Positions 18,278 through 59,183 of a stretch of DNA of 64,000 bases are shown here, one piece after another. A program made the position numbers and the translations under genes. The stretch is from an uncultured archaeon (lineage in GTDB: Archaea > Altiarchaeota > Altiarchaeia > IMC4 > SCGC-AAA252-I15): positions 16,327 to 80,326 of the forward strand of contig CAZPLO010000001.1 of NCBI GenBank assembly GCA_964587725.1, given 5' to 3'. The notes beneath the pieces were generated by a model. The model ran no database searches and was not told the origin of the DNA. It saw nothing but the letters and a program-made list of their open reading frames with translations. The number at the start of each line of letters is the position of its first letter. Position 1 is the stretch's first letter.

Positions 18278-18322
18278 TTTTTATAAAGTATTAAGGGGTT
18301 TTCAAAACAATTTCAAACAAAG

Positions 18323-23668: not shown

Positions 23669-23669
23669 G

Positions 23670-25322: not shown

Positions 25323-25323
25323 C

Positions 25324-27667: not shown

Positions 27668-28080
27668 GGATGAACGGGGGACAGGTTACGGTGGAATACA
27701 TCATAATCACCGGGATAGTGTCCATTATCTTTCTGGTGGCGTTCAACTTCATATCCGAGGAGCGGAAGACCACGGCAGAGGACATCTGGTCCATGGACGG
27801 CGACAAGACTGCGGAGGCCGTAGCCCACGCCATAAACACCGCATACCTCGCAGGCGACGGCGCGGAAGTCAACGTCACCCTGCCTGAGAAGCTGACAGGT
27901 GGCTTAGACTACACGGTGACGGTGTATCGGCGGCTGGTGACAGTGGAGGTGCCCTCCTACGGCAGGGAGTTCGAGTGGAAGTACGTCACCGGCGGAGTAA
28001 ATGGAACCACGGACGGCCTCACACTCGGCAAAGGCACGGTGACTGTTGAAAACAGGAACGGGACAATCTATTTGACATGA
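27661..28080 (+). CDS. Type IV pilin-like protein, class III signal peptide
   Basis: (MLR)MNGG|QVTVEYIIITGIVSIIFLVAF has the QxxVEY motif followed by a hydrophobic helix; tightly packed with neighbouring genes. Confidence 0.7.
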   Translation: MLRMNGGQVTVEYIIITGIVSIIFLVAFNFISEERKTTAEDIWSMDGDKTAEAVAHAINTAYLAGDGAEVNVTLPEKLTGGLDYTVTVYRRLVTVEVPSYGREFEWKYVTGGVNGTTDGLTLGKGTVTVENRNGTIYLT

Positions 28081-28592
28081 AATCTTCGGACAACAGGGGG
28101 CTGGTGTTGACGTTGGATTTAGTGGCGGCGCTGCTGCTTTTCCTGGTTATAATACTGACGGTTCTGTGGCTGTGGGGGCTTTCAAGAACCAATGTAACGG
28201 ATTACCGGGAGACGGACGCCCGCCAGGAGAGGCTGCTGGCTGTGTCTTCCATGCTGGTCGGCACGGGGGGGCAGCCTCCTGACTGGCACCTCCAGGGATC
28301 GATAGACAGGGATAACGTCGACGCCCTCGGCCTCGCATCCGATCCGCACATACTGGACAGGAACAAACTGGAGGCGTTAGAGGCCGCAGACTACCAGGAC
28401 CTCCGGGAGATACTGGGGCTGGGGGACGAAGAATTCAACGTCAGCGTAATAGAGAACTGGAGCGGCGACGCCAGGGTATTGTACAGCGCCGGCCGGACGG
28501 TGGAGTCTGGTGAGGTCAGGGTTTTCAGGCGCTACGCGCTGCTGAACGATACGAGGGTGGAGTTGAGGTTGGAGGCGTACTACGACAAATGA
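28077..28592 (+). CDS. Pilin-like / pilus accessory protein with N-terminal hydrophobic helix
   Basis: MKSSDNRG|LVLTLDLVAALLLFLVIILTV...; 4-nt overlaps with both neighbouring genes. Confidence 0.5.
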   Translation: MKSSDNRGLVLTLDLVAALLLFLVIILTVLWLWGLSRTNVTDYRETDARQERLLAVSSMLVGTGGQPPDWHLQGSIDRDNVDALGLASDPHILDRNKLEALEAADYQDLREILGLGDEEFNVSVIENWSGDARVLYSAGRTVESGEVRVFRRYALLNDTRVELRLEAYYDK

Positions 28593-28978
28593 AAAAAGGG
28601 TTCATACTCACCATGGACGCGATGGTGGCCCTCATGGTGGGGGCGGTGCTGGTGACCGGCATACTGTATTTCGTAACCCGCCCCAGCCACGACACCGGCG
28701 AACAAATGTATGCGGCGGCCGCTGACTTCCTGGCCGTGGGAGACAAGGAGGGCAGCATCGTCGACGCGTTGAACGGCCGGCCGGGAGACGTCAGCGAGCT
28801 CATGTATTCGATGCCCCATAACCTGTGCCTCAACCTGACGGTGGTGAACGCATCAGGGCAAGTGTTTTACAGCAACAGCAGCGGCTGCAACGAATCATAC
28901 AGTTACGTGATGGCGAAACGCATCATAGTGAACGGCACCGACTATTACACAGCCAGGGCGAGGGTGTGGTCGAGATGA
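28589..28978 (+). CDS. Type IV pilin-like protein, class III signal peptide
   Basis: MKKG|FILTMDAMVALMVGAVLV resembles the bacterial G|FTLxE type; NxS/T sequons in the C-terminal part. Confidence 0.65.
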   Translation: MKKGFILTMDAMVALMVGAVLVTGILYFVTRPSHDTGEQMYAAAADFLAVGDKEGSIVDALNGRPGDVSELMYSMPHNLCLNLTVVNASGQVFYSNSSGCNESYSYVMAKRIIVNGTDYYTARARVWSR

Positions 28979-30234
28979 GAGGCTACCTGTTCACCGCCTT
29001 GACGGTGTTGATGCTGGCGTCCCTGTTCGTATTCTCCTACTACTTCTACACCACAGACTACGCCTCCACCGCCGCAGACATACGAGCCGAAAAAACAGCC
29101 AACGTATTCGACGACGTCGCCTGTGACGTGGAGGAAATACTGGGGTTGGACGCCGCCGTTAGGGCGGGCTCGGACACCGTATACGGGTTCAACGACCGGT
29201 TCCCCGCCGCAGGAATACCGTCGACCATACGGAACTACACAGACTACGTTGAAGGCGCGTACGCCACTGAAACAGCGGCGGAACTCTCGTTGAACGCTGG
29301 AGCACTGTCTTCTGCCACCGCGTCGGTGGACTTCACACTCCATCCGTTCAAGTACGCGTACGGTTACGGGAACCTCAGCAAGAAGACGGTTTGGTTCAGG
29401 AACCTCACCCTGGAGTACGAGCCCCTGGAATTGAACCTGACGCTCGACTTCCGCGGCGAGAACGCTAAAGACATGATATGGACGGAGGCTGAAGACTACT
29501 CCCTCACAGGCGAAACAGTGGTGGACGACTCCGACGCGTCCGAAGACAGCTACGTAAGGGACTTCGCCTCCATGAACACGTTCATAGATGTGCCCTTGAA
29601 CGTTAACTACACGTTATGGGTCAGAACAGTATACGACAATAGCAGCAAAAACTTCACCGTGGAAATAGACGGACGGAATAGCAGCAGATTCGACTTGAGG
29701 GATGAGGGGGCATCTTCCGCGTCGTTCAAATGGTTCAACGACACCGACGAATTCAACCTCACCGCCGGGGTGAAGACGGTGAAGGTGCATTCACTGGGCG
29801 CCGGGACGGAGTCCATAGACGTCATCATGCTGACGACGGACTACCTCGACCTGGCGGACGCGCACAATACCCGGCCCCGAGACCCCTTCACATTCTACAA
29901 CATAAGCGGTGGAGACATGGAGGTGAATGTGAAGGTGTTGTTCGACAACGCCAACCACACCCACACGTCGGATTTGAGCAGGACTGCGGAGTCGCAGTGG
30001 AACATCACATTCAGGGACGGGGACGGGGTGAACGTGCGTCTCGGAGGAGCGGATGGACACTACAGCAGCTTCACCGCGGCATTGAACGACACAGTGAACT
30101 CCAGCAACGGAAACCTGAACTCTTCGGCGGTGTTCTCGGACACGGGCGACGAACGGTACGTGGACAGCGGCTGCACGCTCAACCAGGCCGGCGGACTCGC
30201 TAGAACAGGAAGGCTGTGGCTCGCAGCCGGCTGA
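28975..30234 (+). CDS. Large pilin-like / pilus-tip candidate protein (419 aa), N-glycosylatable
   Basis: Internal ATG of track ORF 28825..30234 (ATGA overlap with the upstream gene). N-terminus MRG|YLFTALTVLMLASLFVFSYYF; more than 15 NxS/T sequons. Confidence 0.55.
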   Translation: MRGYLFTALTVLMLASLFVFSYYFYTTDYASTAADIRAEKTANVFDDVACDVEEILGLDAAVRAGSDTVYGFNDRFPAAGIPSTIRNYTDYVEGAYATETAAELSLNAGALSSATASVDFTLHPFKYAYGYGNLSKKTVWFRNLTLEYEPLELNLTLDFRGENAKDMIWTEAEDYSLTGETVVDDSDASEDSYVRDFASMNTFIDVPLNVNYTLWVRTVYDNSSKNFTVEIDGRNSSRFDLRDEGASSASFKWFNDTDEFNLTAGVKTVKVHSLGAGTESIDVIMLTTDYLDLADAHNTRPRDPFTFYNISGGDMEVNVKVLFDNANHTHTSDLSRTAESQWNITFRDGDGVNVRLGGADGHYSSFTAALNDTVNSSNGNLNSSAVFSDTGDERYVDSGCTLNQAGGLARTGRLWLAAG

Positions 30235-30268
30235 AGTTTTTATTACTGCACAGTAATGGTTTAGTAGG

Positions 30269-32008
30269 ATGGTCGAGATCAGGACTAAAGCGGACGCGCT
30301 GGTCGACGCGGTGAGGAAGTCCGAGGAGGGGGTGGGACTCGACCGCCTCGCAAAGGAAGCCGGCGTCGACGCAGACACAGCGGAACGCTGGGTCAACCAG
30401 ATGGAGGACATGCTGGACATAGACTACAGCATAAACCTGTTCAAGAAACCCACCGTCCGGATGAAAAAAGCCGAAGTCAAACGCACACCCAACATATTCC
30501 TAGACAGCGAAGGTGAGACCATCGAATCCTACGACATAACCGTCGACAAGGTCCCCGCGCAGATAATCATCCAGGACCGGAAAGGCGACTTCATGCGCAC
30601 CTACTACGTTGGAATGCCTGTTTTGGGAGAGGGAACCCACACCCTACTCAACAACGTGGTTAAGGAACTCGCGGTGAAGGTGTCCACCCGCACCGAAGAC
30701 ATATCAGACCCCCGGAAGGCGTCCGAGATAAAAGGCAAGTTCAGGATGGAGGCGCGGCAGAGGATACTTGACGAGATGCCGGTTACGGAGGAGCAGGCCG
30801 ACATACTCTCCGGGCTGATAATGCACAGGGTGTACGGCCTCGACGACCTGGAGATAATCCTGGGAGACGACCTCATAGAGGAACTGTGCATAAACGCCGG
30901 CGACCTCCCCATCATAGTGTATCACAGGAAGTACGGGTGGCTGAAGACCAACGTCGTCGTGCCGGAGGAGAAGGACATATTCGACTACGCCTCCCTCATC
31001 GGCCGTAAGGTGGGTAAGGACATCACCAACTTGAACCCGCTGATGGACGCCCGCCTCATCACCGGCGACCGCGTCGCGGCGTCGCTGTTCCCCATCTCCT
31101 CACAGGGGAATACGATAACCATACGGAAGTTCGCGCGGGAGCCGTGGACGATAGTGGACTTCATGAGCCCGGAATACAACACCATCTCTTCCGAGATAGC
31201 GGCGTTCCTGTGGCTGTGCATACAATACGAGTTGAGCGTCATGGTCGCCGGCGGCACAGCCTCCGGGAAGACGAGCATGCTCAACAGTTTGTGCGCGTTC
31301 ATACCGCCGGGGCAGAGGGTGGTAAGCATAGAGGACACCCGCGAGATACAACTGCCGTCGCACCTGGGATTGAACTGGATACAGCTGACCACGCGGGAGC
31401 CGAACCCCGACGGCCTCGGAGGCGTCACCATGCTGGATTTGATTGTGTCTTCGCTGAGGATGCGACCGGACCGCGTGATAGTGGGCGAGATACGGAACCG
31501 GGACGAGGCGGAGGTATTGTTCGAGGCCATGCACACCGGCCACTCAGTGTATTCGACGATGCACGCGGACACCGCCATGCACGTCCGCCGGCGGGTGACG
31601 GAGCCGCCGATACAGATTCCGGAGGCCGAATTGGAGGCACTGCAGGTGATACTTACACAGTACCGTGACCGCCTGCACGGGATACGCCGCACATTCGAGA
31701 TAGCGGAGGTCATACCTGGGACGAGGGAGCGGCGGCTGGAGCTGAAGTACCTTTACAGGTGGAGGATCAAGACCGACACCTTCGAACAGGTCGACAGAAG
31801 CAACCGCGTATACAACGACCTCAACCTGTACACCGGCATGAGCGTGAAGGAGATAGAGCAGGACCTGCTGGAAAAAAAGCAGGTGCTGGAGTGGCTGCTG
31901 GAGAACAAAGTCAACCGGATGGACGAGATAGGGCAGGTCATGAACATGTACTACACGGACAAGGACGAACTCATAAACGCGGTCCAAGCCAAGAAGAAGA
32001 TAGAATGA
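30269..32008 (+). CDS. TadA/FlaI/VirB11-family secretion ATPase with N-terminal extra domain
   Basis: Walker A MVAGGTASGKTSMLNSL, Walker B (RPDRVIVGEIRNRDE), His box (VYSTMHAD); 579 aa with an N-terminal HTH-like segment (GLDRLAKEAGVDADTAERWVNQ). Confidence 0.85.
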   Translation: MVEIRTKADALVDAVRKSEEGVGLDRLAKEAGVDADTAERWVNQMEDMLDIDYSINLFKKPTVRMKKAEVKRTPNIFLDSEGETIESYDITVDKVPAQIIIQDRKGDFMRTYYVGMPVLGEGTHTLLNNVVKELAVKVSTRTEDISDPRKASEIKGKFRMEARQRILDEMPVTEEQADILSGLIMHRVYGLDDLEIILGDDLIEELCINAGDLPIIVYHRKYGWLKTNVVVPEEKDIFDYASLIGRKVGKDITNLNPLMDARLITGDRVAASLFPISSQGNTITIRKFAREPWTIVDFMSPEYNTISSEIAAFLWLCIQYELSVMVAGGTASGKTSMLNSLCAFIPPGQRVVSIEDTREIQLPSHLGLNWIQLTTREPNPDGLGGVTMLDLIVSSLRMRPDRVIVGEIRNRDEAEVLFEAMHTGHSVYSTMHADTAMHVRRRVTEPPIQIPEAELEALQVILTQYRDRLHGIRRTFEIAEVIPGTRERRLELKYLYRWRIKTDTFEQVDRSNRVYNDLNLYTGMSVKEIEQDLLEKKQVLEWLLENKVNRMDEIGQVMNMYYTDKDELINAVQAKKKIE

Positions 32009-32892
32009 GGGTCTACGCCATGGTGCTGCCTCAGGCGGCGGGCAGGAAACTCGGCAGCAGGTTCGAGTGGCTGGGGAGGATTCTGACGGACTTCACGCCG
32101 CAGCTGAAAAGCGACATCGTGCTGTCGAACATAGACATGACCGCGGAGGAATACATGGTGTCTTCGCTGGCGTCCGCGTCCATACTGGGGGCTATGATGT
32201 TCACCTTCACCTACCTGCCAGTTTATTTACTGGAGATGGTGCCCGGCAGCGAACTCATCGTTTCCATTGCGCCGGCGGTGGTGATAGCGTTGCTGGACTT
32301 CTTCATAATGATGCAATATCCTCGGATACTCGCCGTTAAACGGGCGGAGCTTATAGACCGAGACCTCATATACGCGCTCAAGGAGCTGCTGCTGAACATG
32401 AGCGCCGGCCTGAGCCTGTTCGAAAGCCTCCGCCGGGTGTCGGACGCCAATTACGGGTACGTGTCATCCGACCTCCGGGGGGTGGTGGAGAAGACCACGC
32501 AGGGGACTCCGTTGGACGACGCCCTTGAAGGCCTCGCCCTCCGGACGTCGAGCGAGTACATGAGGAACGCGCTGTGGCAGACGGTGAACGCGGTGAAGGC
32601 TGGCACCAGCGTCAAAGAAGCATTGTCGGGCATAATAGACGCGCTGGTGCGGGAGCAGACGCGGAAGATACGCAATTACATACAGGAATTGAACGTCCTC
32701 ACCATGGTGTATATGCTGTTCGCAGTCGCCGTCCCCACCATAATAACGACTGTACTGGTGGTATTGACTTCGCTGATGGGGACGGGGGTGGACGAGATAA
32801 CCTACGTAACCGTCATAGTGGTGTGCATATTCATACAGGTGGCGTTGGTGGGTTTCATAAGGAGCAGGCGGCCGCTGGTCTACAGCATCTAG
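32005..32892 (+). CDS. Single-domain T2SSF-family platform protein (TadB/TadC-like)
   Basis: Internal ATG of track ORF 31759..32892, overlapping the ATPase stop (ATGA). One cytoplasmic T2SSF-like domain flanked by TM helices. Confidence 0.7.
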   Translation: MRVYAMVLPQAAGRKLGSRFEWLGRILTDFTPQLKSDIVLSNIDMTAEEYMVSSLASASILGAMMFTFTYLPVYLLEMVPGSELIVSIAPAVVIALLDFFIMMQYPRILAVKRAELIDRDLIYALKELLLNMSAGLSLFESLRRVSDANYGYVSSDLRGVVEKTTQGTPLDDALEGLALRTSSEYMRNALWQTVNAVKAGTSVKEALSGIIDALVREQTRKIRNYIQELNVLTMVYMLFAVAVPTIITTVLVVLTSLMGTGVDEITYVTVIVVCIFIQVALVGFIRSRRPLVYSI

Positions 32893-33209
32893 GCCTCCGG
32901 CTTCCCCATCAGGTTGGGGCTGCGGGGTTTCTTGTAGCCTCTGTCGTGGACGCGGTAGGATTCCTCGTTCAAGCCCAGTATGCTCACCAGCTCCGAACGC
33001 GCCACCAGAAACCTGCTGTGCCCGAGGAACGTGGACAGGTAGTCGGTGGTCAGACCGTTCAGCAGGCTCTCTTTTTCGACATCGCTCATGTGCTCGACGT
33101 CCATTATGCCTAGTTTCTTCATCTCGTTAACCAGGACCAATCCCCCGGACTTGCCGGACCACTTGAACATGAACTCCAGCAGCTGTCTGCCCACCTTGGC
33201 CATCTTCAC
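32889..33209 (-). CDS. Small hypothetical protein (106 aa) coupled to the KaiC-like ATPase
   Basis: Its start overlaps the KaiC-like stop by 4 nt; no recognisable family. Confidence 0.4.
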   Translation of the reverse strand: MKMAKVGRQLLEFMFKWSGKSGGLVLVNEMKKLGIMDVEHMSDVEKESLLNGLTTDYLSTFLGHSRFLVARSELVSILGLNEESYRVHDRGYKKPRSPNLMGKPEA

Positions 33210-33913
33210 TTATACAGTACCTTCAATCCCTCCGACGATATGTCGTAGTCTACGAAGTTTTTGACGTGATTTGAGCCGCGCATCTTATGGACCTTCACCT
33301 GCCGCCCCCACTCCTCCCTGATTCGGAACAACGTGACGGAGTCGGCTAGGAAGTCCTCCATGCCGAAACGGCTGGTGTCGTTCGACGAATACGGTATCTC
33401 GGTGGTGAACACGGTGGTGATGCCCATCTTCTTCAGCGACACCATGAAACGGAACAGCTCCGCCCTGAATACTTTCTCGTCCTCGTACGCGATAGCCAGC
33501 GGCACCACGCTGTCCAACCCCAGGCGGACTGCATCGCTGTAGTTCAACTGTATGAACTCCAGCAGGTTCTCGAAGCGGAGCGGACTCTCCGGGCTCTCCA
33601 CCTCGTCGGCGGTGTTCAACGCGTTGACACGTAGCGAGGACAGGTCGAACATGGTGAGCATGTCATCGTCCACGTCCTCCAGGTCGAGGCCGACCGTTTT
33701 GCTGTCCCTTACTATGTGGTCCCTCATCTCCTCCAAGGTAATGTAAACTCCCTTCTGCCCGTACTTCACCGCCCCGTTGTAGAGAAAGTAGAGGGTGAAC
33801 AGGGTCTTCCCGGAGCCGCTGCACCCGCACAGCAGGTTTATGCTGTGGGGTATAAAGCCGCCCCCCAAAAGGTTGTCGTAGCCTTCAATGCCGGTCTTGA
33901 TTCGCTCATCCAT
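33206..33913 (-). CDS. KaiC-like / FlaH-like single-domain RecA-superfamily ATPase
   Basis: GIEGYDNLLGGGFIPHSINLLCGCSGSGKTLFTLYFLYNG (Walker A) with the KaiC/RadA-like layout; 235 aa. Confidence 0.8.
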   Translation of the reverse strand: MDERIKTGIEGYDNLLGGGFIPHSINLLCGCSGSGKTLFTLYFLYNGAVKYGQKGVYITLEEMRDHIVRDSKTVGLDLEDVDDDMLTMFDLSSLRVNALNTADEVESPESPLRFENLLEFIQLNYSDAVRLGLDSVVPLAIAYEDEKVFRAELFRFMVSLKKMGITTVFTTEIPYSSNDTSRFGMEDFLADSVTLFRIREEWGRQVKVHKMRGSNHVKNFVDYDISSEGLKVLYK

Positions 33914-33983
33914 AATAAAACCCCCCTTAGAACGTTAGATATTGAATGTTTTATTAAAATAACCGGGATTTAATACATTACCT

Positions 33984-34964
33984 ATGGAACGGACCTACAT
34001 CCTCGCCTCCCGGATTTTCCCATCCAGGGTTAATAGAAGCATCAGCGACCTCCTCAGGTACTGCGGAAGCACCATGACGGCCGAGACCTGGCTGGGGAGG
34101 GCCGCCATAATCAGCATCATAATATTCGTTTTAACGGCGGCGGTGTTTTTGTTCACCGTCCAAAACCCCCTGATGGCCCTGTTCCTGGTATTGGTGGGGC
34201 TCCTGATATTCCACGTGGCAAACTACATGCTCCTGTATTTGAAGGCGGAGAGCAGGGCTAGGGCTGTGGAACGCGTTCTCCCCAATCTCCTGCAGCTGAT
34301 AGCCGCCAACCTCAACTCCGGGATGACGCCTTTCCAGGCTGTGAAGGAGGCGTCTAGGATAGAGTTCGGAATCCTGAAGGAGGAGATAGACACCGCCATC
34401 GCATTGTCGCTGGGGACCATGCCTTTCCCGGACGCGCTGATGTACATGACGACGAAGGTGAAATCCGAAACCTTCAGGAACGTGATGGAGTTGTTCGTGG
34501 AGGGGATGAGGACGGGGGGGCCCCTGGCCACCCTGCTGAACGACATAGCAGACGACATAATAGAGAACCTGGACCTGCGGCGGGAGATTGTCACGCGGAG
34601 CAAAAGCTACATACTGTTCATATCCTTCATCGTGGTGGTGGGGGCTCCGCTGCTGTCGGCGGTGTCGATACACTTCATCCGCACCATCACCAGCATAACA
34701 AGCACCGTCGCCTTGGACGTGCCGGAGGTGGCTAACGTGGGCGGCATAACATTCGGGCAGCTGAGCCTCACCGAAAGCTTCCTCACCACCGTGTCGGTGG
34801 CCAACATACTGGTGACCGCGTTGATTGCGAGCTGGCTGATTGCCATAATAGCGGAGGGCAGGGACAAGTACATGTTCAAGTACGCCATAATGCTGGTGCC
34901 GTTCTCCATGGTCATGTTCTACTCCCTCGACTACCTGATAGCGCTGGTATTGACCGTAGAATGA
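33984..34964 (+). CDS. Single-domain T2SSF-family platform protein (TadC-like)
   Basis: N-terminal TM helices, then one T2SSF-type cytoplasmic domain (...NLNSGMTPFQAVKEA...), then C-terminal TM helices; 326 aa. Confidence 0.7.
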   Translation: MERTYILASRIFPSRVNRSISDLLRYCGSTMTAETWLGRAAIISIIIFVLTAAVFLFTVQNPLMALFLVLVGLLIFHVANYMLLYLKAESRARAVERVLPNLLQLIAANLNSGMTPFQAVKEASRIEFGILKEEIDTAIALSLGTMPFPDALMYMTTKVKSETFRNVMELFVEGMRTGGPLATLLNDIADDIIENLDLRREIVTRSKSYILFISFIVVVGAPLLSAVSIHFIRTITSITSTVALDVPEVANVGGITFGQLSLTESFLTTVSVANILVTALIASWLIAIIAEGRDKYMFKYAIMLVPFSMVMFYSLDYLIALVLTVE

Positions 34965-36064
34965 AAATAGCGTTGATCTGCGAGTTCTTCCCGGAGTCCA
35001 GCGGCCGGGAGATGCGAGGGGGCGTCGAAGCCCGGACGTACTTCATGGGCAGGGGCCTGGCGAAACGACACGACGTCACCGTATACAGCGTCAAAGAACC
35101 GGGGTTTACGAACACTTCCATTGACGGCATGGACGTGGTGCGGGTGGGGCCGGAGATGAAGTACACGCAGGCGTCGTCGCTGCCAGACAGAATCCGTTTC
35201 ATGCGAGACGCCGCCGAGCAGGTGAAAGGCTTTGACGTGGTGGACGGAGCCAGCGTCATAGGCTACCCGGCCGCGTGGTGGAGCAAATGCCCCGTGAAGA
35301 CTGTGACATACCATGACGTGTGGGTCGGACGCTGGATTCGAAACATCGGGTGGAAGGGCGCGTTCGGCGAACTCATGGAACGATACGTGCTGTCGCGCCG
35401 GTGGAATCTGGTGACGGCGGTGAGCGAGTACACGAAACAGAATCTCGTGAAACACGGCGTAGACGCTGAAAAGATTACGGTGGCGCCGAACGGCATAGAC
35501 GTCCGCGAATACGCGGGGGTGAAGGCGGAGAAATTCGACAAACCCACCGTGTGCACGGTAGCGAGGCTGGTGAAGTACAAGCGGGTCGGCGACCTCATTC
35601 AAGCGGCTGCGAATATGAAGGAGGACGTACCCGGCCTTCAGGTGAAGGTTGTGGGGACGGGGCCGGAGAGGAAAACCCTGGAGCGTCTCGCACGTGACCT
35701 CGGAGTAGATGCGGATTTCATGGGGTACGTGCCAAAACACTCCAGGGTGTTGGAGACAGTGAAGGCGTCGCACGCGTTCTGCTTGCCCAGCGCGGTGGAA
35801 GGCTACGGCATCACCGTCGTGGAGGCGATGGCGTTGGATGTCCCGTACGTGGCGTCCGACATACCCGCCGTCAGGGAGGCGACGCGGAACGGTTCAGGGG
35901 GCCTGCTGTATGAGACAGGCAACATAGGGAAGCTTGCAGACGGACTGAAGACTGTGCTGCAGGGAGGCGTTGAAGGCGGCGTGGACTTCATCGGCGAATA
36001 CGAGTGGAGCCGTACGGTGGAGAAGGTGGAGGAGGCGTATGAAAGGGCATCTGACATTAAGTGA
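34961..36064 (+). CDS. GT4-family (GT-B) glycosyltransferase
   Basis: N-terminus MKIALICEFFPESSGREMRGG. The C-terminal EX7E motif is ...PSAVEGYGITVVEAMA.... Confidence 0.85.
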   Translation: MKIALICEFFPESSGREMRGGVEARTYFMGRGLAKRHDVTVYSVKEPGFTNTSIDGMDVVRVGPEMKYTQASSLPDRIRFMRDAAEQVKGFDVVDGASVIGYPAAWWSKCPVKTVTYHDVWVGRWIRNIGWKGAFGELMERYVLSRRWNLVTAVSEYTKQNLVKHGVDAEKITVAPNGIDVREYAGVKAEKFDKPTVCTVARLVKYKRVGDLIQAAANMKEDVPGLQVKVVGTGPERKTLERLARDLGVDADFMGYVPKHSRVLETVKASHAFCLPSAVEGYGITVVEAMALDVPYVASDIPAVREATRNGSGGLLYETGNIGKLADGLKTVLQGGVEGGVDFIGEYEWSRTVEKVEEAYERASDIK

Positions 36065-37592
36065 CCGGCACGGGCTGGCAGTCATACTGCTGGTTGCTCT
36101 GGCGCTGATGCTCCAGCACATAGGCGGCGCCTTCGGGGGATACCACGGATTCAACGAAGCATTCTACACCCGGCTGGCCGGGAGCATAGCAGAAAACCCC
36201 CTGTCGTATCCGCGGCTGCCCGAAGGCAGAGCAGACTACAACATACCCCCGCTCCTCGCCTACCTCCTCGGATACGCGTTCATACTGTTCGGGGAAGGGG
36301 AGGCGGTTGCGAGGATGGTTCCCGTAGCATTCAGCCTCCTCGCGGTCGCATCAACATACCTCATCGGCAGGAGACTGTATGGGGGGCGGACGGGGCTGGC
36401 GGCGGCCGCCATACTTTCCGTGACGCCCATGCACTTCATCGTAGGCAGGAACGTGCAGACGGACATGGTGTTCGTGGCATTGGGGTTGACCGCAGTATAC
36501 CTGTATCTCCGAGGGTCGGTGAAGGCCGCCGGCGCAGTATTGGGGCTGGGATTCCTCGCCAAACAGCCGGCGGCACTGTATTACGTGGGGTTGCTGGCGT
36601 ACGAGGTTTGGCGGACGCACGACTCGGAAGACCGCCGTGGAACCTTGAAAAAGTTCGCAGTGTTCACTGCGTGCGCCGCTGCAGTGGCAGCACCGTATAT
36701 AATATACAATCTCGTCAACGACCCCGGAGGGTTCCTGGGCGGGCAGACACGCGACGTCATGCTCGCCTCGACCGGCGGCCCGGGATTGTTCGCGCTAGCC
36801 TCCGAAGCATACAATGGATTGTCTCCGCTGACTACATTGGCATTCATCGCAGGCGTCATACTCGTGCTGCGTAAACGTGAACGCGACCTCACACTCATCT
36901 ACACGGCATTGTTTGCGGTGTTCTTCCTGTTCTACAACTTCCACTCATACTATGCGCTGCCGCTGGCGGCGTTCGCTGCATTGGCGGCGGCACGGGCATG
37001 CTCAGGGATACCGTCTAAGAAACTCCGCCTAGCAGCCATCTTACTACTCTACTGCGCTGGACTCTTCAACACCGCGCTGATGATGTGCGCCAACAAATAC
37101 GGGTACGAAGAGTTCAGGAGGCTGCCCCGGCACATCCCCGAACAGGATGCTGTGCTTGTTGCTTCAGACGTCATAGAACGCAGTTACCTGCCGGTGCTCC
37201 AATACTATGCGGACAAGGAGGTGGTTGCAGCCGGCGGATACGACGTCGAAGCAGGTGAAATGTATCCGCTGGACTACTCGAAACCCACGTATGCGCTGAT
37301 ACACCGGAGCGAAGTGGACCTGGGGCGGCTGACCGAACAGCACCGGCAGAGACTAGTTGACAACGGCGTCTACGCGGACGTGCACGCGCTAGCCCTGGGC
37401 GGCGTGGTATTCCACCGGCCGCCCATAAACCCCCACTTCTTCACCAACGGCCCACTACAGGTGGAGTGGCTGCTTCCCCCAACATCATACGGGGTCGTGA
37501 AGGTGGGTGAGGTGCCGGAGGTGTTCGCCGTGAAACTGCGGCCCAGCGAACGCCTGTACAGAAGCGACAGAGGAGGCTACAGCATCAGATAG
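36039..37592 (+). CDS. GT-C membrane glycosyltransferase, GT39/GT83 (PMT/ArnT)-like
   Basis: Internal ATG of track ORF 35970..37592. Polytopic membrane protein with ...VAVASTYLIGRRLYGGRTGLAAAAILSVTPMHFIVGRNVQTDMVFVALGL..., typical of the PMT/ArnT family. Confidence 0.65.
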   Translation: MKGHLTLSDRHGLAVILLVALALMLQHIGGAFGGYHGFNEAFYTRLAGSIAENPLSYPRLPEGRADYNIPPLLAYLLGYAFILFGEGEAVARMVPVAFSLLAVASTYLIGRRLYGGRTGLAAAAILSVTPMHFIVGRNVQTDMVFVALGLTAVYLYLRGSVKAAGAVLGLGFLAKQPAALYYVGLLAYEVWRTHDSEDRRGTLKKFAVFTACAAAVAAPYIIYNLVNDPGGFLGGQTRDVMLASTGGPGLFALASEAYNGLSPLTTLAFIAGVILVLRKRERDLTLIYTALFAVFFLFYNFHSYYALPLAAFAALAAARACSGIPSKKLRLAAILLLYCAGLFNTALMMCANKYGYEEFRRLPRHIPEQDAVLVASDVIERSYLPVLQYYADKEVVAAGGYDVEAGEMYPLDYSKPTYALIHRSEVDLGRLTEQHRQRLVDNGVYADVHALALGGVVFHRPPINPHFFTNGPLQVEWLLPPTSYGVVKVGEVPEVFAVKLRPSERLYRSDRGGYSIR

Positions 37593-37638
37593 TGTTTTTA
37601 ACCGTCTCTTTGAATACATTACATCAAGGTGATAGACT

Positions 37639-38337
37639 ATGGTTGAGCGCGTTCAAACGGGTATACCGGGGCTCGACGAGCTCCTCGGCGGCGGATTCAT
37701 CAGGAGACGGCATGTTGTCATATGCGGCGGCCCGGGAACCGGAAAGACCACGCTGGCATACGAGTTCCTGTACCGGGGGGCCGAACAATACGGTGAGAAA
37801 GGGTTGTTCGTGTCATTGGAGCAGAGCCCCGAACGGGTGGTGGATGGGGCGAAGGCGTTGTTCAGCAGCTGGGACTGGGACAGACACCTGGACTCTAACA
37901 TAGTGGTGACGAGGGTGCAGATAGACGACTTCACCCACCTCCAGGACATCATAGGAAACTACGTCAAGGAACACGGTGTGAAGCGGGTGGCGTTGGACAG
38001 CCTAACCCTGCTGCGGCTGTATTTCAGGGGCGAAGACGCGTACCGGAACAATCTGTATGAGCTGCTCACGTTCCTCGGAGACCTCGACTGCACCACCCTG
38101 CTGACGCTGGAGAAGGCGATGAACCGACGGTCCGACGCCCAATACGACATGGAGGAGTTCGTAGCAGACGGCGTAATCAACATGTATCTGGTTCCGAAGG
38201 AGCGGGACCGTCTGAGGGTATTGGAGATTGTGAAGATGAGGGACACCGACCACAGCACCCGCCTTAGCCCGTTCAAGATAACACCGGACGGACTGATGAT
38301 TTCCCCTGACGCGCAGATGTTCGGAGACATCGAGTGA
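37639..38337 (+). CDS. KaiC-like single-domain RecA-superfamily ATPase
   Basis: GIPGLDELLGGGFIRRRHVVICGGPGTGKTTLAYEFLYRG; 232 aa; related to 33206..33913. Confidence 0.8.
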   Translation: MVERVQTGIPGLDELLGGGFIRRRHVVICGGPGTGKTTLAYEFLYRGAEQYGEKGLFVSLEQSPERVVDGAKALFSSWDWDRHLDSNIVVTRVQIDDFTHLQDIIGNYVKEHGVKRVALDSLTLLRLYFRGEDAYRNNLYELLTFLGDLDCTTLLTLEKAMNRRSDAQYDMEEFVADGVINMYLVPKERDRLRVLEIVKMRDTDHSTRLSPFKITPDGLMISPDAQMFGDIE

Positions 38338-39221
38338 AGATGGACAAGGCATCCCGGGTGTACTCCAGCCTGCTCGCCGGCGAAACAGCATACCTTGCTA
38401 AGGTGAACCCGCAGCTGGCTGCGAAGACGCTGGAGGAGAAGGCGGAGGCGCTGAAGAAGGCCGGCGTACAGTATACTGTAGAAGGCGGTCTGAAGATAAC
38501 CGAGGCACCCGAAAACTCCGGGGAGCTGCTGTATCAGACCATACTCGACTTGGCAGCACCCTATGAGAAACAGTACGGGGTGAACAAGCTCTGGAACCCG
38601 CTGAAGACCGTGATAGTGAAGGTGTTCCAGAAGAACCGGGACGTGGTCCGGGAGACGGGCATGGAGGTTCCCGTCGCAAAGTACGAGATAGAGTACATGA
38701 TACTGGAGACGCTGTTCGGCTTCCAGGGCACCGACTTCCGGAAGAAGAGGTGGATAAACGGGGCCGTGCTCGTGACAAACCACGAAATCGTGCTGCCGGA
38801 GGACGGCGGCGCAGAACACATTCCCTTGCAGGCCGTCGCCACCGTCGGCCGCGAAATATACGTGGGCTACGAGCACGAGATGACCAAGGGGATAGTACGG
38901 GCCATAGACTACCAGGTGAAGGAGTCCGGGATGTCCTGTGCGGTGCTGCTGGCGAAGGGGGAGTTGATGAAGGAGTTCATGAAGGTCGCGTCCGTCATGA
39001 GGGCGGAGTATCGGAGGCTGAACCCCACGGAGGAGAGGATACTGCTCGCATTATACGATGAGACGCCGGTTGAACAGCTGGCGGGAAAGACAGGTGTGAA
39101 GGGGGTCGACGTGACGGCCGCCTTCAAGCGGCTGATGGAGCTCCGGTACACGGACGGGAAAGGCCACCTCACGTCGTATGGCATTAACGCTTCAATGGAG
39201 TTGAAACAGAGAGGTAGATGA
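38334..39221 (+). CDS. Hypothetical protein (295 aa) with C-terminal winged-helix-like region, translationally coupled to the KaiC-like ATPase
   Basis: ATGA overlap with the upstream gene. The C-terminal ...TEERILLALYDETPVEQLAGKTGVKGVDVTAAFKRLMELRY... looks like a wHTH. The N-terminal 230 aa are not recognised. Confidence 0.45.
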   Translation: MKMDKASRVYSSLLAGETAYLAKVNPQLAAKTLEEKAEALKKAGVQYTVEGGLKITEAPENSGELLYQTILDLAAPYEKQYGVNKLWNPLKTVIVKVFQKNRDVVRETGMEVPVAKYEIEYMILETLFGFQGTDFRKKRWINGAVLVTNHEIVLPEDGGAEHIPLQAVATVGREIYVGYEHEMTKGIVRAIDYQVKESGMSCAVLLAKGELMKEFMKVASVMRAEYRRLNPTEERILLALYDETPVEQLAGKTGVKGVDVTAAFKRLMELRYTDGKGHLTSYGINASMELKQRGR

Positions 39222-39919
39222 AGATGACGGTTGATTTAAGGAGGAGTGTTGTTGTGAACTTTAAGACGTACGAGCAGGCCACCGGCGCCAAGGCAGTGGC
39301 GTTGGCGAAAGTATGCGACGAGGTGGCGCGGGAGCTCGGCGCCAACATCGTGGTTACTGTACAGGCAGTGGACTTGAAGGCCGTGGCTGACGCCGTCGGC
39401 ATACCAGTGTTCGCACAGCACATCGACCCCGTGAGGTACGGCAGCAACACCGGGTGGGTGCTGGCCGAAGCCGTTAAGGAGGCCGGCGCGGTCGGGACGC
39501 TGATTAACCACAGCGAACACAAGCTGCCGCTGGAGGAAATCAGGAAACGGATTGAACGGGCCCGTGAAATAGGTCTGACGACAATCGTATGCTCCGGCAA
39601 GGACAGCAACGAGGAGACAATCGACGAAACCAAAGCTATTGCGGCGTTGAAGCCCGACTTCGTGGCCGCTGAACCCCCGGACCTCATCGGCGGAGACGTT
39701 TCAGTGACCACACGGCCGGAGCTGGTGACGGGTGTCGTGGATGCCGTGAACGAAGTGGACTCCGGAGTCGGCGTGTTGACGGGGGCGGGGGTGAAGACGG
39801 GAGACGACGTCCGGGATGCACTGAAGCTCGGCACACTCGGCGTGCTGCTCGCCTCCGGGGTTACGAAGGCGAAGGACCCGGCGGCTGCGCTGAAGAACCT
39901 GTGCAGGGGGCTGGAATAA
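39218..39919 (+). CDS. tpiA: Triosephosphate isomerase (archaeal type)
   Basis: VVVNFKTYEQATG, LINHSEH, ...GGDVSVTT...; about 225 aa, the archaeal short TIM. Confidence 0.85.
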   Translation: MKMTVDLRRSVVVNFKTYEQATGAKAVALAKVCDEVARELGANIVVTVQAVDLKAVADAVGIPVFAQHIDPVRYGSNTGWVLAEAVKEAGAVGTLINHSEHKLPLEEIRKRIERAREIGLTTIVCSGKDSNEETIDETKAIAALKPDFVAAEPPDLIGGDVSVTTRPELVTGVVDAVNEVDSGVGVLTGAGVKTGDDVRDALKLGTLGVLLASGVTKAKDPAAALKNLCRGLE

Positions 39920-39981: not shown

Positions 39982-40992
39982 TCAACTGCGTTTTCTGCGG
40001 TATTTTTCTATGATTCCTTCGACGTCCGCCGGCTGCTCGGACAGTTCAGCAAGCTGTTCGGCGTTTATGTGGTAGTAGCCGTGGGTGCGCTGGAGTTCGG
40101 AGGAGTCGTATACGGGGACGCCTTTTTCCAGGAGGTGTTCGCGCACCTTCTTCTTGGACGTGAACGCAGCCTTCAACCCCTCCACTGACTCCGGGACCTG
40201 CTCCACCAGCGCCATCCCGCAGACGACGTTGGGGCAGACCCCCACCAACAACGTGCTCCCCAACATGACATCATCCAGCAGGCGGCGGCACTCAGACAGC
40301 TCCCCCACCTTCCGGGACAGTGTTTTGACTCGGGGGCCGGGCTTCACCTTCGGACGGGACTTCACGTGTTTACGGCGTTTCTCGGCAGCCAACTTCTCCT
40401 TTAGAACCTGTATTGTTTCGTCGCGTTCAGACGCCTCATTGGAGAGGACCCTAACCCGCTTCTCAAGGGAGCGTATCTGTTTCTCCTCCTCAGACGGTTC
40501 ACGGTGGGGCTGCGCTTCAACCTCCCGCTCCTCATCCTCCGGATCCTCCTCCAAAGACTGACAGGCCCGGCTGATGCTCTTGCCCTGCAGCACAAAGTGC
40601 TTAACATCCTCCCCCAGGCCGAGGGACTCTATCTTCTGCATCTTGTTCCTGAACTGGCTGAACGCGTGCAATGCGGCAGCCAATGCGTCACGCTGGTGGG
40701 CGTCGGAGACATCATATTCCCTGGTCAACTCCAGCTTCTCCTGAACCGTCAAAGACTTTTCAGGCACGTAGAAGGTGACGCCGAAGTTTGACGCGATGCG
40801 GGAAACAAACTCCGGGCCGGGGCGGACGTCGCATGCTATGACAGACGGATGACCCATGGACACTATGTACTCTATCGCGGAAGACAAGCCCATCTCCTTC
40901 CCGCTTGTCACCCCAACCAGTCCACCCTTCAGGTCGACCGCAGCCACCGCGGTGGTGGTCCCCGGGTCGACTCCAAAGATAAGGTGTTTCAT
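39982..40992 (-). CDS. DUF460-like archaeal protein with N-terminal RNase H-like (YqgF/RuvC-like) fold and central coiled coil
   Basis: MKHLIFGVDPGTTTAVAAVDLKG is an RNase-H-like-fold start; charged coiled-coil middle; 4-nt overlap with purF. Confidence 0.5.
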   Translation of the reverse strand: MKHLIFGVDPGTTTAVAAVDLKGGLVGVTSGKEMGLSSAIEYIVSMGHPSVIACDVRPGPEFVSRIASNFGVTFYVPEKSLTVQEKLELTREYDVSDAHQRDALAAALHAFSQFRNKMQKIESLGLGEDVKHFVLQGKSISRACQSLEEDPEDEEREVEAQPHREPSEEEKQIRSLEKRVRVLSNEASERDETIQVLKEKLAAEKRRKHVKSRPKVKPGPRVKTLSRKVGELSECRRLLDDVMLGSTLLVGVCPNVVCGMALVEQVPESVEGLKAAFTSKKKVREHLLEKGVPVYDSSELQRTHGYYHINAEQLAELSEQPADVEGIIEKYRRKRS

Positions 40993-46886: not shown

Positions 46887-47834
46887 ATGCTCATGGACCG
46901 CAGAGCACAAGCGAGTATAGAGTTCATGGTGGTGGTGGGCGTAGTGCTGATGGTGTTCATCATACTCGGGTACGTCGTCTACAGGAATTTCGTGAAAAGC
47001 AATGACCTGAAGATACACATAGACGGCACCCGGGTGGCCAACCACGTGGCCGACAGCATCAACACAGTCAACGTCCTCGGCGACGGCTACAGCACCACCT
47101 CCATGGTCCCTGGCACACTCTACGGAGGCCGCCCGTACACCGTCAACTTCTACGAGAACGAGTCCGCAGTGTATTTGATGGGGAGCGGGTTCTCAACAGG
47201 CAGCGAACTCACCTTCAGCAGCCCGTTGTATACGAGCCAGATAGAATGCCTGCTCCCCGGTTGCGCCTCGGGATGCAACCAGACCGGCGGGGAACAGTGC
47301 CTGCAGGTCAACGACTCCATGACTGTGAAGCTGACGGGGTGGGGTGGAAGTGTGTACTTGAGCCCGAAGTTCAACGTGGAACAGCAGAGCTTGAGGGGGG
47401 ATGTAGTGTCTTATACCTCATACCAGGACCCCGACCCCTTCGCGGCCGAAGGCTTCGTATTGGGCGAGGAAGTGAACTGGAACGTGATGTATGTACATGA
47501 GAACGTCGACGACGGCTCGTTGAGCCTGGTGTTCAGCCTTAACCTGTCGGGGGAGGGGTTTAGGGCCGACGTCGAGGAGGTCTTGGGGGAGCGGGTGGAG
47601 TTCGGGTCGAACGATGACTTGGACGAATTCAACATGGACGTCGTGCCAGGAGCCGACGAGGGCCGGTGGAGTTCCGGCGGAGGGGACGTCGACGGAGGCT
47701 ACGTGAAATACGCCGGCGGATTCAGGGTGTGCGTGCAGCCGGAGACCATGCCGTCCGTGGAGTGGAGGTTCCTCAGCTCCGACGGAAACCACCTGACATT
47801 ATACGATGAGAGAGTATGCGTAACGTATCCGTGA
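46887..47834 (+). CDS. Pilin-like protein, class III signal peptide (315 aa)
   Basis: MLMDRRA|QASIEFMVVVGVVLMVFIILGYV (QASIEF motif); the start abuts the previous stop (TGAATG). Confidence 0.6.
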   Translation: MLMDRRAQASIEFMVVVGVVLMVFIILGYVVYRNFVKSNDLKIHIDGTRVANHVADSINTVNVLGDGYSTTSMVPGTLYGGRPYTVNFYENESAVYLMGSGFSTGSELTFSSPLYTSQIECLLPGCASGCNQTGGEQCLQVNDSMTVKLTGWGGSVYLSPKFNVEQQSLRGDVVSYTSYQDPDPFAAEGFVLGEEVNWNVMYVHENVDDGSLSLVFSLNLSGEGFRADVEEVLGERVEFGSNDDLDEFNMDVVPGADEGRWSSGGGDVDGGYVKYAGGFRVCVQPETMPSVEWRFLSSDGNHLTLYDERVCVTYP

Positions 47835-47836
47835 CG

Positions 47837-50086
47837 ATGAAGAAGGGGCAGATTTTCACGTGGGACATGATATTCGGGATTACGGTATTCCTGGTCGCCC
47901 TGGTGTTGGTGGTTTACCTGTGGGAGGCATCCTACCGTGAGCTCCGTCATGCGGAGGAAGCCTATGGGATGAACTGGCTTGCGGAGACGGTGTCGGAGCA
48001 GCTGGTGCGCACCGGCGGAGAGCCTCATTACTGGATTCCTGAGCAGGTGGTGGCATACGGATTAGCGGAGGTGCGCGGAGGGGAGGTGGCCGTGGATCCC
48101 CATGATCTGCAGATCAAGGTTTCGAGGAAGCCTGTGGAGAGCAGGGTGTTGGACGCGGACAAGATACTGTACCTGATAAAAGCCTTCCAAGAAGACTACG
48201 AGGGAGTCAGGAACAGGATGCTCGGTTCCTCCAGATACGATCTGTATGTGGAGCTGTCGTGCGTCAACCGCAGCGACCTCACCTGCCTGCAGGGATTGCA
48301 CCTGGACAACGTCAACGAACCCGTGCACTGCACAAACACCAGGGTAAGCGTCAGCGGATTCAGGACAGACAGTTACGTGTGGCTGGAGGCCGAGGACGTG
48401 TGGGGCAGCCCATCATCATCATTCTGCCTGAAGGGATGCAGCGGCGGAAACACGAGCAGGATAGATGATGTGGAACCTGTGACAGTGGGCATAGACCCGG
48501 GAAAGTACCAGATATGGGTTCGGGCCTACGAAGACAACAGCGACGCCAAGATAGTGTTGGATGGCGTGGAACACGGGATATATGGCCTCAGGCGACCGGG
48601 CAGCCTGGGGTGGAGCCACGTTGGCGAACAGGATCTCGACAGCGAAGTGGTGATAGGGTTCGCCGACACGGAGGATGGAAACCGGGTGGATGCTGTACTG
48701 CTTTCAACCGAAGGATCCTACACCCCCGGCGTAGAAAACATAGAATTTTACGGCAACCCCAACACCTTCGAATCGTGTATAATTGGAAATCCGAGTGAGG
48801 GAAGCGATACTGTGAGCTCCGCCAAAACCGCGGTGGTTGGCGTGCCCCTGAGCAGGACGGAGTTGCTGGGGGGCGTGCACAGGATACTCGACAAAGTGGT
48901 TGAGGTGAAGGTGGTTGTGTGGGGCGGGGAGGCTCTGCCGCCGCGTGAGATATCCGGGGAGTCGGCGACAACAACGACTACTACCCTGCCTCCAACGGAC
49001 ATAATATGCAGCGGCGGTGAACTGACGGAATACTGCGTAGCCAACTACCCGCCGGCCATAGACGTGACCGGCGTTAAGTTCTCCGGGGGGAACACGCTGT
49101 CGTGCGGAGACAGCAAGGACTTTACGGTGTCGTGGAGGGGCACCCACCTCAGGGACCCCAACTATTTCGCGTTCTACTTAGACAACAGGAGCTTCTTCCT
49201 CGGCGCCTGCAGCAGCTTCGTGGACGAAGGCGACCTCGGCTACCACAATTACAACATGAGCTGCGCCGTGGACGTGCCGGAAGGGCTGGATGTGGTGGAC
49301 GGGCAGCACGAGTTTATCGTAACCGCAGAAGACGAGGACGGATACTGCATGCCCGGTGACGAACGTGCCGACGACCAGGAATCCTACGCCGTCAACATCC
49401 AGAACTGTCTCGGCTACGCCAACCTGCCCTGTTCGCAGACGTACGGCAAGAAGAGTGGGTGCGTGGAGAACGTGAACAGCGTGGACACAGTATACAGGAT
49501 GGAGTCGAACGGTCTGGAGTGCACCAACTACGGCAACACCGCGGACACCTACTGGGGCGGCGGCCACGGAGACAGTGGGACAGTGTACTGGACCTATCTC
49601 CTGGAGGTCGACGGCTCATACGTGTGCCTCGCCACCTGCGAGTCCACGGGGGCGACAGCACACTATAACATGAGCTGCACGTTGAACCTGGGATCCGACT
49701 GCGACGGAAATCCATTAAACATTCCGGACGGACAGTACCGTCTGCTGGTTACCGCGGAAACCCACCCCGAAAACTACTGCAGAGACCCAGAGGCCGCGGA
49801 TGCTGTGGGCTCCGGCACGGTGTCTTGGAGCTGCGAAACCGGAGGGAGTAACGTCTTACTCACGTATTATATAGCCGACGCGTCCGGCGTCGAAGAGGCG
49901 GAACTATACTCTGACGTGTCAGGCAGCTGGGGTTACACCGCGGTTGAACCAGCCCCCACCCATAATGCGGGGGAGAATGCGGTGTTGTTGGTGAACGTGC
50001 CCCCAGGCACCTACCAGTGGAACATCAAACTACAGCCCCTGAGAGGCTTCTTATATGGGGAAAACCAAGTTTTTACTGTGGAGTAA
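47837..50086 (+). CDS. Large pilin-like adhesin (about 749 aa), class III signal peptide, Cys-rich
   Basis: Internal ATG of track ORF 47816..50086. MKKG|QIFTWDMIFGITVFLVALVLVV; many paired Cys, NxS/T sequons, Thr linker (ATTTTTTLPPT). Confidence 0.6.
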   Translation: MKKGQIFTWDMIFGITVFLVALVLVVYLWEASYRELRHAEEAYGMNWLAETVSEQLVRTGGEPHYWIPEQVVAYGLAEVRGGEVAVDPHDLQIKVSRKPVESRVLDADKILYLIKAFQEDYEGVRNRMLGSSRYDLYVELSCVNRSDLTCLQGLHLDNVNEPVHCTNTRVSVSGFRTDSYVWLEAEDVWGSPSSSFCLKGCSGGNTSRIDDVEPVTVGIDPGKYQIWVRAYEDNSDAKIVLDGVEHGIYGLRRPGSLGWSHVGEQDLDSEVVIGFADTEDGNRVDAVLLSTEGSYTPGVENIEFYGNPNTFESCIIGNPSEGSDTVSSAKTAVVGVPLSRTELLGGVHRILDKVVEVKVVVWGGEALPPREISGESATTTTTTLPPTDIICSGGELTEYCVANYPPAIDVTGVKFSGGNTLSCGDSKDFTVSWRGTHLRDPNYFAFYLDNRSFFLGACSSFVDEGDLGYHNYNMSCAVDVPEGLDVVDGQHEFIVTAEDEDGYCMPGDERADDQESYAVNIQNCLGYANLPCSQTYGKKSGCVENVNSVDTVYRMESNGLECTNYGNTADTYWGGGHGDSGTVYWTYLLEVDGSYVCLATCESTGATAHYNMSCTLNLGSDCDGNPLNIPDGQYRLLVTAETHPENYCRDPEAADAVGSGTVSWSCETGGSNVLLTYYIADASGVEEAELYSDVSGSWGYTAVEPAPTHNAGENAVLLVNVPPGTYQWNIKLQPLRGFLYGENQVFTVE

Positions 50087-50087
50087 C

Positions 50088-59176: not shown

Positions 59177-59183
59177 GTTTAAG

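Follow-up and report, generated by a model that had tools for sequence, protein, structure and literature searches.

A conserved gene pair coding for a KaiC-like ATPase and a CheF-related protein in an uncultured archaeon of the Altiarchaeota

A DNA stretch of 64,000 nucleotides from an uncultured archaeon of the Altiarchaeota lineage (GenBank assembly GCA_964587725.1, contig CAZPLO010000001.1, positions 16,327 to 80,326 of the forward strand), hereafter called the window, carries on its forward strand a gene coding for a single-domain KaiC-like (CI-like) ATPase of 232 residues (KaiC3, 37639-38337). It is directly followed by a gene coding for a divergent CheF-family protein of 293 residues (the partner, 38340-39221; 295 residues if the alternative GTG start at 38334 is used). 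Both proteins share domain homologies with known families, the adjacency of their genes is conserved and the genes are arranged as in an operon. Tentatively, we propose that the partner is an adaptor of the CheF type which depends on the state of KaiC3 and signals by protein contacts to the motor of the archaellum or of a pilus, a reading that we regard as possible.

The partner belongs to a small family (9 clusters in an index of 5.8 billion proteins), and 53 matches at E ≤ 1e-3, 25 of them at E ≤ 1e-30, were obtained among 1.84 billion representative proteins. It has no match in NCBIfam and none over threshold in Pfam. A relationship with CheF (Pfam CheF-arch PF04283, DUF439, arCOG02394; structures 7OVP and 7OD9) had been named in the original prediction, made from the sequence of the window, among the folds to look for, and this relationship was recovered. 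In the comparison of the partner family profile with 177,635 PDB sequences, only CheF was found (7ovp_A, 7od9_C). The tail of the exhaustive profile search consisted of true CheF, e.g. P0055, a protein with the same C-terminal domain and a CheF-arch match at E = 2.6e-67. Finally, the hhalign comparison of the partner family with a CheF alignment gave a probability of 98.4 % (E = 1e-14), residues 134-291 of the partner being aligned with residues 124-287 of CheF, i.e. with its second PH domain, linker and C-terminal domain (CTD). The window protein taken alone scores 17.7 bits against CheF-arch (gathering threshold 25, E = 3.2e-3), over residues 137-217 only. Sub-threshold Pfam signals were detected across the family for CheF-arch in 5 of 9 members and for wHTH-PRTase_assc in 8 of 9.

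An AlphaFold2 model of the partner was built on an alignment of 9 sequences (pLDDT 87.4, pTM 0.83). The N-terminal domain (residues 1-106, 38340-38657) is a bundle of helices, devoid of similarity to PH domains, into which a beta-hairpin is inserted and which has a conserved E76-x3-G80-x4-W85 loop. It precedes a PH-like domain (residues 109-206, 38664-38957), then a linker helix (residues 207-226) and a winged helix resembling the CheF CTD (residues 227-293), both encoded by 38958-39218. In the model, residues 109-226 form a seven-stranded beta domain with a helix cap and residues 227-293 are organized as three helices, a wing and a helix. The C-terminal winged helix announced in the original prediction is therefore present in a confident model. 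The same prediction recognized no domain in the first 230 residues or so. This is still valid for residues 1-106, for which a separate structure prediction followed by a fold search provided no informative fold match, but not for residues 109-226, which correspond to the CheF-type PH-like domain and linker helix. The top Foldseek matches were eukaryotic DH-PH RhoGEF modules (TM about 0.29). This helical-plus-PH likeness was judged superficial and the relationship was discarded.

In CheF, the two PH-like domains have been proposed to dock on ArlCDE, and the CTD (alpha5-alpha7, beta16, alpha8) dimerises and binds CheY-P, with no description of DNA binding (Altegoer et al. 2022, PMC9126983). The homology revealed by hhalign and by the profile searches, together with the retention of the PH domain, the linker and the CTD, leads us to consider the partner as a re-modelled CheF. 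The homology established by the sequence profiles covers the PH domain, the linker helix and the C-terminal domain, whereas an unrelated, new and lineage-specific helical domain of about 106 residues replaces the first PH domain of CheF. The partner gene also differs from cheF by its location, since it adjoins the genes of a KaiC-like ATPase and of a triosephosphate isomerase (TIM, tpiA) outside che or arl operons. Because the protein remains below the Pfam threshold and carries a single PH domain where CheF has two, it is designated here as CheF-related and not as CheF.

The product of the first gene of the pair, already described as a KaiC-like ATPase in the original prediction, matches the Pfam KaiC model (PF06745) end to end, with residues 5-224 spanning model positions 1-229 of 231 (192.3 bits for a gathering cut-off of 26.6, E = 1e-56). 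In the PDB, the KaiC3 profile finds its best match in true KaiC, over the CI half of the latter (residues 19-248), with E values down to 7.5e-64. The motifs were assigned by inspection: the Walker A motif GGPGTGKT, the Walker B-like motif RV(V/A)(I/L/V)DS (RVALDS in the window protein) and the putative catalytic glutamate E61 (SLEQ) are invariant or conserved in six KaiC3 orthologues. KaiC3 is made of one domain whereas bona fide KaiC is a duplicated CI-CII protein of about 500 residues, and its score with the model of the circadian protein (NCBIfam TIGR02655 / NF006799) is 149.6 bits for a cut-off of 408 bits. KaiC3 was also rejected as an ArlH (FlaH) protein: it reaches 22.1 bits for an NCBIfam equivalog cut-off of 215, and it is 27 % identical to the true ArlH of the window, encoded by 25324-26052 (225.8 bits). 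From its sequence, KaiC3 is thus assigned to the KaiC-like family, and is neither a double-domain KaiC nor an ArlH. As counted in the original prediction, it is the third KaiC-like ATPase encoded within 13 kb, after ArlH and a paralogue, KaiC2 (33206-33913, - strand). A role of the locus in anti-phage defence was also considered, for which PADLOC gave only generic P-loop matches.

The conservation of the pair was explored by a scan of GTDB (one genome per species) with the KaiC3 alignment as query, the partner being then sought by local hmmsearch. Eight loci were obtained: six are labelled Altiarchaeota, or 'uncultured archaeon' and syntenic with them, one comes from a 'Methanobacteriota archaeon' metagenome-assembled genome (MAG) and one from a Euryarchaeota single-cell genome. 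The partner gene is located directly downstream of KaiC3 in 7/7 of the GTDB loci which extend past KaiC3. A GTDB scan with sequence patterns of the partner gave no loci, the partner genes being recovered only through the KaiC3 scan; a metagenome scan with the partner alignment gave 6 short loci. Altogether, the pair was found, with 1-19 nt between the two genes, in three unrelated gene contexts (groups A, B and C), in which the KaiC3 proteins encoded next to partner genes are 56-83 % identical and the partners 25-51 % identical. In group A, the lineage of the window, the order KaiC3-partner-TIM is found in all the related loci, as far as their contigs extend to the gene concerned, with identities of 70-83 % for KaiC3, 68-83 % for TIM and 30-51 % for the partner. 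In group B (P0028 from the NCBI MAG GCA_043822165.1, P0030, and the single-cell genome SCGC AAA252-I15), the pair is followed by the genes of a 330-residue protein and of an AMP phosphorylase-like protein, and no flanking gene is common with group A. In group C (P0031, locus L015), the gene of a KaiC protein of 275 residues precedes KaiC3 and the partner, and these genes are convergent with an operon holding ArlCDE and two archaellin-like genes, possibly ArlF/G. Across the groups, the KaiC proteins adjacent to the partner are mutual orthologues (56-60 % identity) and show 25-31 % identity with KaiC2, with ArlH or with the second KaiC of group C.

These data bear on the simplest alternative, in which KaiC3 and the partner have no functional relationship and their adjacency is a synteny inherited among close genomes. 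All the group-A loci are indeed syntenic from the pilus locus to argJ, and the conservation within group A is by itself uninformative because of this extended synteny. However, the two genes are also adjacent, with intergenic gaps of 1-19 nt, in the two further contexts devoid of common flanking genes, and this adjacency was kept while the partner diverged to 25-30 % identity between groups. A fortuitous neighbourhood is accordingly strongly disfavoured and appears highly improbable. The original prediction would have been refuted by an absence of the pair from other genomes; on the contrary, the same KaiC subfamily was found upstream of the partner in the three contexts and in all seven informative GTDB loci. 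The pairing is nevertheless not universal for the whole partner family, since the distant members P0033 and P0034 have no neighbouring KaiC gene on their short contigs.

Several other features of these loci were recorded. P0033 and P0034 (loci L007, L017 and L018) stand for those branches of the family which, among the full-length proteins, are the most remote; in L017 and L018, the partner gene is preceded by a YjbQ gene. In L032 (219-2477), P0047, a protein of 208 residues restricted to the PH domain and the winged helix, has its gene followed by that of a V4R-domain protein and then by that of a different KaiC-like paralogue, 32 % identical to KaiC3; this single case suggests that CheF-like and KaiC-like proteins may be associated more widely. 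The tandem KaiC-like genes of L015 (6477-7990; 275 residues, and 227 residues for the KaiC3 orthologue), 2 nt apart and located ahead of the partner, are reminiscent of a split two-domain KaiC. In group B, the partner gene overlaps the gene of the 330-residue protein by 4 nt (L019 8927-9919, + strand; L020 1838-2839; L029 7633-8616). This protein is conserved, with a faint NurA-like match (E = 0.03) and a DGS motif, and the module of this lineage may thus have three components. A relationship with the DUF460 gene of group A was discarded, as no similarity was found by BLASTP. The next gene codes for the domain set of AMP phosphorylase (Glycos_trans_3N, Glycos_transf_3, PYNP_C). Finally, the partner diverges far faster than the flanking KaiC3 and TIM in the same genomes (window 37639-39919 compared with L002-L013 and L023-L026), for which relaxed constraint or co-evolution with a variable target are possibilities.

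The limits of the genes were examined in the sequence. The two open reading frames (ORFs) lie on the same strand, as predicted, and both are considered as genuine genes and not as chance ORFs because their homologues are conserved and the partner gives a well-scored structural model. The KaiC3/partner junction reads GAG TGA AG ATG, the KaiC3 stop codon being at 38335-38337. The ATG at 38340, 2 nt past this stop, is the start retained in all the partner homologues and in the public gene call, in which P0001 is identical to the window partner over 293 residues. The partner gene is therefore best taken as 38340-39221, and the length of 295 residues given in the original prediction would apply only to the GTG start at 38334. 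The translational coupling by an ATGA overlap proposed there for KaiC3 and the partner has to be abandoned: a 4-nt overlap (GTGA) would exist at this junction only with GTG 38334, and the ATGA string is located at the partner/tpiA junction (39218-39221). The tpiA gene (39224-39919, + strand; Pfam TIM, E = 6e-35) has an alternative ATG at 39218, but it most likely starts at ATG 39224, 2 nt past the partner stop, because the homologous TIM proteins begin with MTVDL or MTVNL.

A promoter-like leader precedes the pair (37595-37632, + strand). It contains a TATA-like box TTTTTAA (37595-37601), the element GAATACATTAC (37612-37622) and a Shine-Dalgarno sequence GGTGA (37628-37632). The same succession, i.e. 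a TATA-like box, about 10 nt, the element GAATACnTTAC / AAATACATAAC and GGTGA, recurs before KaiC3 in the window and in L004, L023, L024 and L025; it is only loosely kept in L009 and was not seen in L026. In group A, the DNA flanking these elements is otherwise unconserved. Downstream, tpiA starts 0-35 nt after the partner in every group-A locus which reaches beyond the 3' end of the partner gene. Since the order of TATA-like box, element and GGTGA is conserved within unconserved DNA, the pair seems to be driven by a promoter of its own and to share a transcript with tpiA. It looks unlike the tail of the operon for pilus and glycosylation genes, the promoter function being predicted from the sequence. 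The pair is located, as stated in the original prediction, between glycosylation genes (GT4, 34961-36064, and PMT_2, ending at 37592) and tpiA. The suggestion that it regulates this surface-structure island keeps some plausibility, and is weakened by the promoter-like region proper to the pair, by the operon arrangement with tpiA and by the pilus-free AMP-phosphorylase-like context.

In the mechanism that we tentatively favour, KaiC3 would presumably assemble into a ring and serve as a switch through its nucleotide or phosphorylation state. The adaptor, probably a dimer, would read this state, the new N-terminal domain or the CTD being the likely contact, and would relay it by protein contacts to the motor of a type IV filament, either the archaellum (ArlCDE/ArlH/ArlI) or the adjacent pilus machinery. 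We infer the physical interaction between KaiC3 and the partner, the dimerisation of the latter and the choice of a motor as target. In the archaellum relay, CheY-P binds the CTD of CheF, which docks on ArlCDE (PMC9126983), and ArlCDE contacts the KaiC-like ArlH, which regulates ArlI (PMC8978795). The proposed pathway would be a CheY-independent version of this CheY-P -> CheF -> ArlCDE -> ArlH/ArlI relay. No che gene was detected among the about 50 larger ORFs of the window scanned against Pfam, which fits an input independent of CheY.

In favour of a filament motor as the target, two of the three contexts have archaellum or pilus genes close to the pair. In the window, arlHIJ are located 12 kb from the pair and the pilus-like locus lies immediately upstream of it. 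An archaellin gene is found 1 kb downstream of the pair in L004/L005, and ArlCDE and the two archaellin-like genes are at most 5 kb from the pair in L015. The charge of the winged helix was also considered: the domain carries a net charge of +1 in the window protein and of +0.1 on average in the family, and the putative recognition helix one of +0.4 (family). These near-neutral values argue weakly against DNA binding and in favour of an adaptor.

Other observations weigh against this proposal. The distant partners P0033 and P0034 are encoded without an adjacent KaiC gene on their short contigs, and the pair is co-arranged with tpiA and not with motility genes. No archaellum or pilus gene is present within about 8 kb in the AMP-phosphorylase-like context. 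The partner also departs from CheF on two points, the Pfam gathering score and the number of PH-like domains (one versus two). Moreover, the CTD has a canonical winged-helix fold, which leaves room for DNA binding, and one member of the partner family gives sub-threshold matches with helix-turn-helix (HTH) models of Pfam (HTH_24, MarR_2 and IclR).

The last two points belong to the main competing explanation, an ATPase-regulated DNA-binding partner as imagined in the original prediction. The partner would then be a transcription factor binding DNA by its winged helix and modulated by the ATP or phosphorylation state of KaiC3, and it would act on its own operon as well as on the nearby genes for pili, glycosylation and surface proteins. 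In addition to the fold, a distant relative matches TrmB and MarR_2. The 10-mer AATACATTAC is identical near the TATA-like boxes of the KaiC3 (37613) and T2SSF/GT4/PMT_2 (33972) promoter regions, just downstream of the box (stretches 37595-37622 and 33948-33981 of the window, respectively), and in L023, L024 and L025 the T2SSF orthologues are preceded, at the same position, by related AATACATAA elements. This shared 10-mer could be a common operator, or only a core-promoter or initiator element typical of the lineage. However, the element is non-palindromic, and GAATACnTTAC is not found in the window above chance (3 observed, 1.83 expected), so that only its position and its conservation across genomes are notable. 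In the window partner, no Pfam HTH model reaches its threshold, wHTH-PRTase_assc alone giving a sub-threshold score (18.9 versus 27 bits). The closest homologous domain, the CTD of CheF, dimerises and binds CheY-P with no DNA binding reported, the winged helix of the partner is not basic, and the AMP-phosphorylase-like context has no surface-structure genes close to the pair. A transcription factor is thus not the best supported function for the partner, and we consider it rather unlikely, even if it is a serious competitor.

The genes located downstream of the pair suggest another function, the regulation of energy or metabolism, in which KaiC3 would sense the adenylate state and, with the partner, control TIM or the AMP phosphorylase-like enzyme and not surface structures. 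KaiC ATPases respond to the ATP/ADP ratio. The close succession of the partner and tpiA in all the informative group-A loci, and the presence of the AMP phosphorylase-like gene after the pair and the 330-residue protein gene in group B, are in agreement with such a role. On the other hand, this arrangement concerns two contexts only, in which both downstream housekeeping genes could be passengers, and the third context (L015) has no such enzyme. Furthermore, we know of no mechanism linking PH or winged-helix adaptors to TIM or to AMP phosphorylase. This hypothesis is considered as improbable, more so than a transcription factor. In the frame of the CheF-type adaptor, the same genes lead to a milder suggestion, namely that the KaiC -> CheF-like pathway possibly reports the energy state of the cell.

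KaiC-like ATPases are abundant in archaea, where they have been proposed as signalling hubs, and GvpD/GvpE in haloarchaea are a precedent for the association of a KaiC-like regulator with a transcription factor. In Haloferax volcanii, the KaiC-like ATPase CirA has been proposed to modulate CsmR, a partner controlling motility, shape or surface structures (PMC13286277), which also speaks for a transcription factor in the present case. Nevertheless, the partners in the CirA/CsmR and GvpD/GvpE systems are bona fide DNA-binding regulators unrelated to CheF, unlike the protein studied here, and no operon pairing has been described for CirA and CsmR, unlike KaiC3 and its partner. Another parallel is offered by the predicted pairs of arCOG01174 KaiC and a second component (PMC4858521). 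There too, a KaiC-family ATPase is encoded at or next to pilus loci and a small cytoplasmic partner is proposed to relay its state; the second component is a DEATH-like helical protein in those pairs and a CheF homologue in the window. ArlH resembles KaiC3 as a single-domain KaiC/RecA-like ATPase of about 230 residues, and works in a complex containing ArlCDE, the docking partner of CheF (PMC8978795). However, KaiC3 is not an orthologue of ArlH and is closer to the CI domain of KaiC.

According to Makarova et al. (2016, PMC4858521), most KaiC-like ATPases have no evident second component and nothing indicated that chemotaxis components act on other pili. No description of a KaiC-like/CheF-like pairing was found in the searchable literature; an earlier mention in Makarova et al. 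2017 (mBio) is possible. If our proposal is true, the KaiC -> CheF-like pathway would supply the missing second component of one KaiC-like hub, and the pair already points to a concrete and testable output or candidate partner for it. Descriptions of CheF have so far presented it as specific to archaea, where it connects the archaellum with the imported Che system of bacterial type. The conserved KaiC/CheF-like operon suggests that CheF-type adaptors may be an older and more general archaeal module with inputs beyond CheY. The wider generalization, in which a KaiC-type ATPase would feed a CheF-derived adaptor in archaea without CheA/CheY and ensure, by a KaiC -> CheF-like -> type IV filament motor pathway, a post-translational control of the archaellum or pilus, is more doubtful, and we would regard it as somewhat less probable than even the transcription factor. 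Because the partner family is small and restricted to lineages without cultures, namely the Altiarchaeota and a small number of other archaeal MAGs, heterologous biochemistry will be needed and the immediate impact is limited.

Among the other genes of the window, the archaellum motor genes arlJ, arlI and arlH (21920-26052, - strand) were identified with NCBIfam models. FlaI gives 716 bits for a cut-off of 550 and ArlH exceeds its cut-off of 215, whereas ArlJ is the best match with 428 bits, yet under its cut-off of 550. The type IV pilus-like locus (27661-37592) comprises, according to Pfam, pilin-like genes, a T2SSE ATPase (30269-32008, + strand), two T2SSF genes (32008-32892 and 33984-34964), KaiC2, a gene for a protein of 104 residues and two glycosyltransferase genes, GT4 and PMT_2; synteny with the related loci extends over the entire block. 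The gene of the 104-residue protein (32889-33203, - strand), located downstream of KaiC2, is conserved (104-105 residues, no Pfam match; also L004 3781-4098, - strand). Its product may be the helical 'DEATH-like' partner predicted by Makarova et al. 2016 and, if so, each non-ArlH KaiC of the window would have its own partner. Three ATPases of the T2SSE/FlaI type are encoded in the window (4578-6059, -; 23670-25322, -; 30269-32008, +), one of which is a true FlaI.

Directly after tpiA, on the opposite strand, a DUF460 gene (39982-40992, - strand) is conserved in the group-A loci reaching that point; in L004/L005, tpiA and DUF460 are separated by the archaellin gene and by a small MazE-like gene. 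Many proteins of the window have N-termini resembling class III signal peptides (27661-28592, 46887-52196 and 57452-62300, the last with Laminin_G), and the number of surface-filament genes in the window is unusually high for an Altiarchaeota-like genome. Finally, the region 13160-18277 (- strand) codes for what is presumably a large surface protein, 1705 residues long, in which right-handed beta-helix/NosD, Big_13 and CarboxypepD_reg domains are recognized, and AATACTTTA (18284-18292, - strand) is located 7 nt ahead of this gene.

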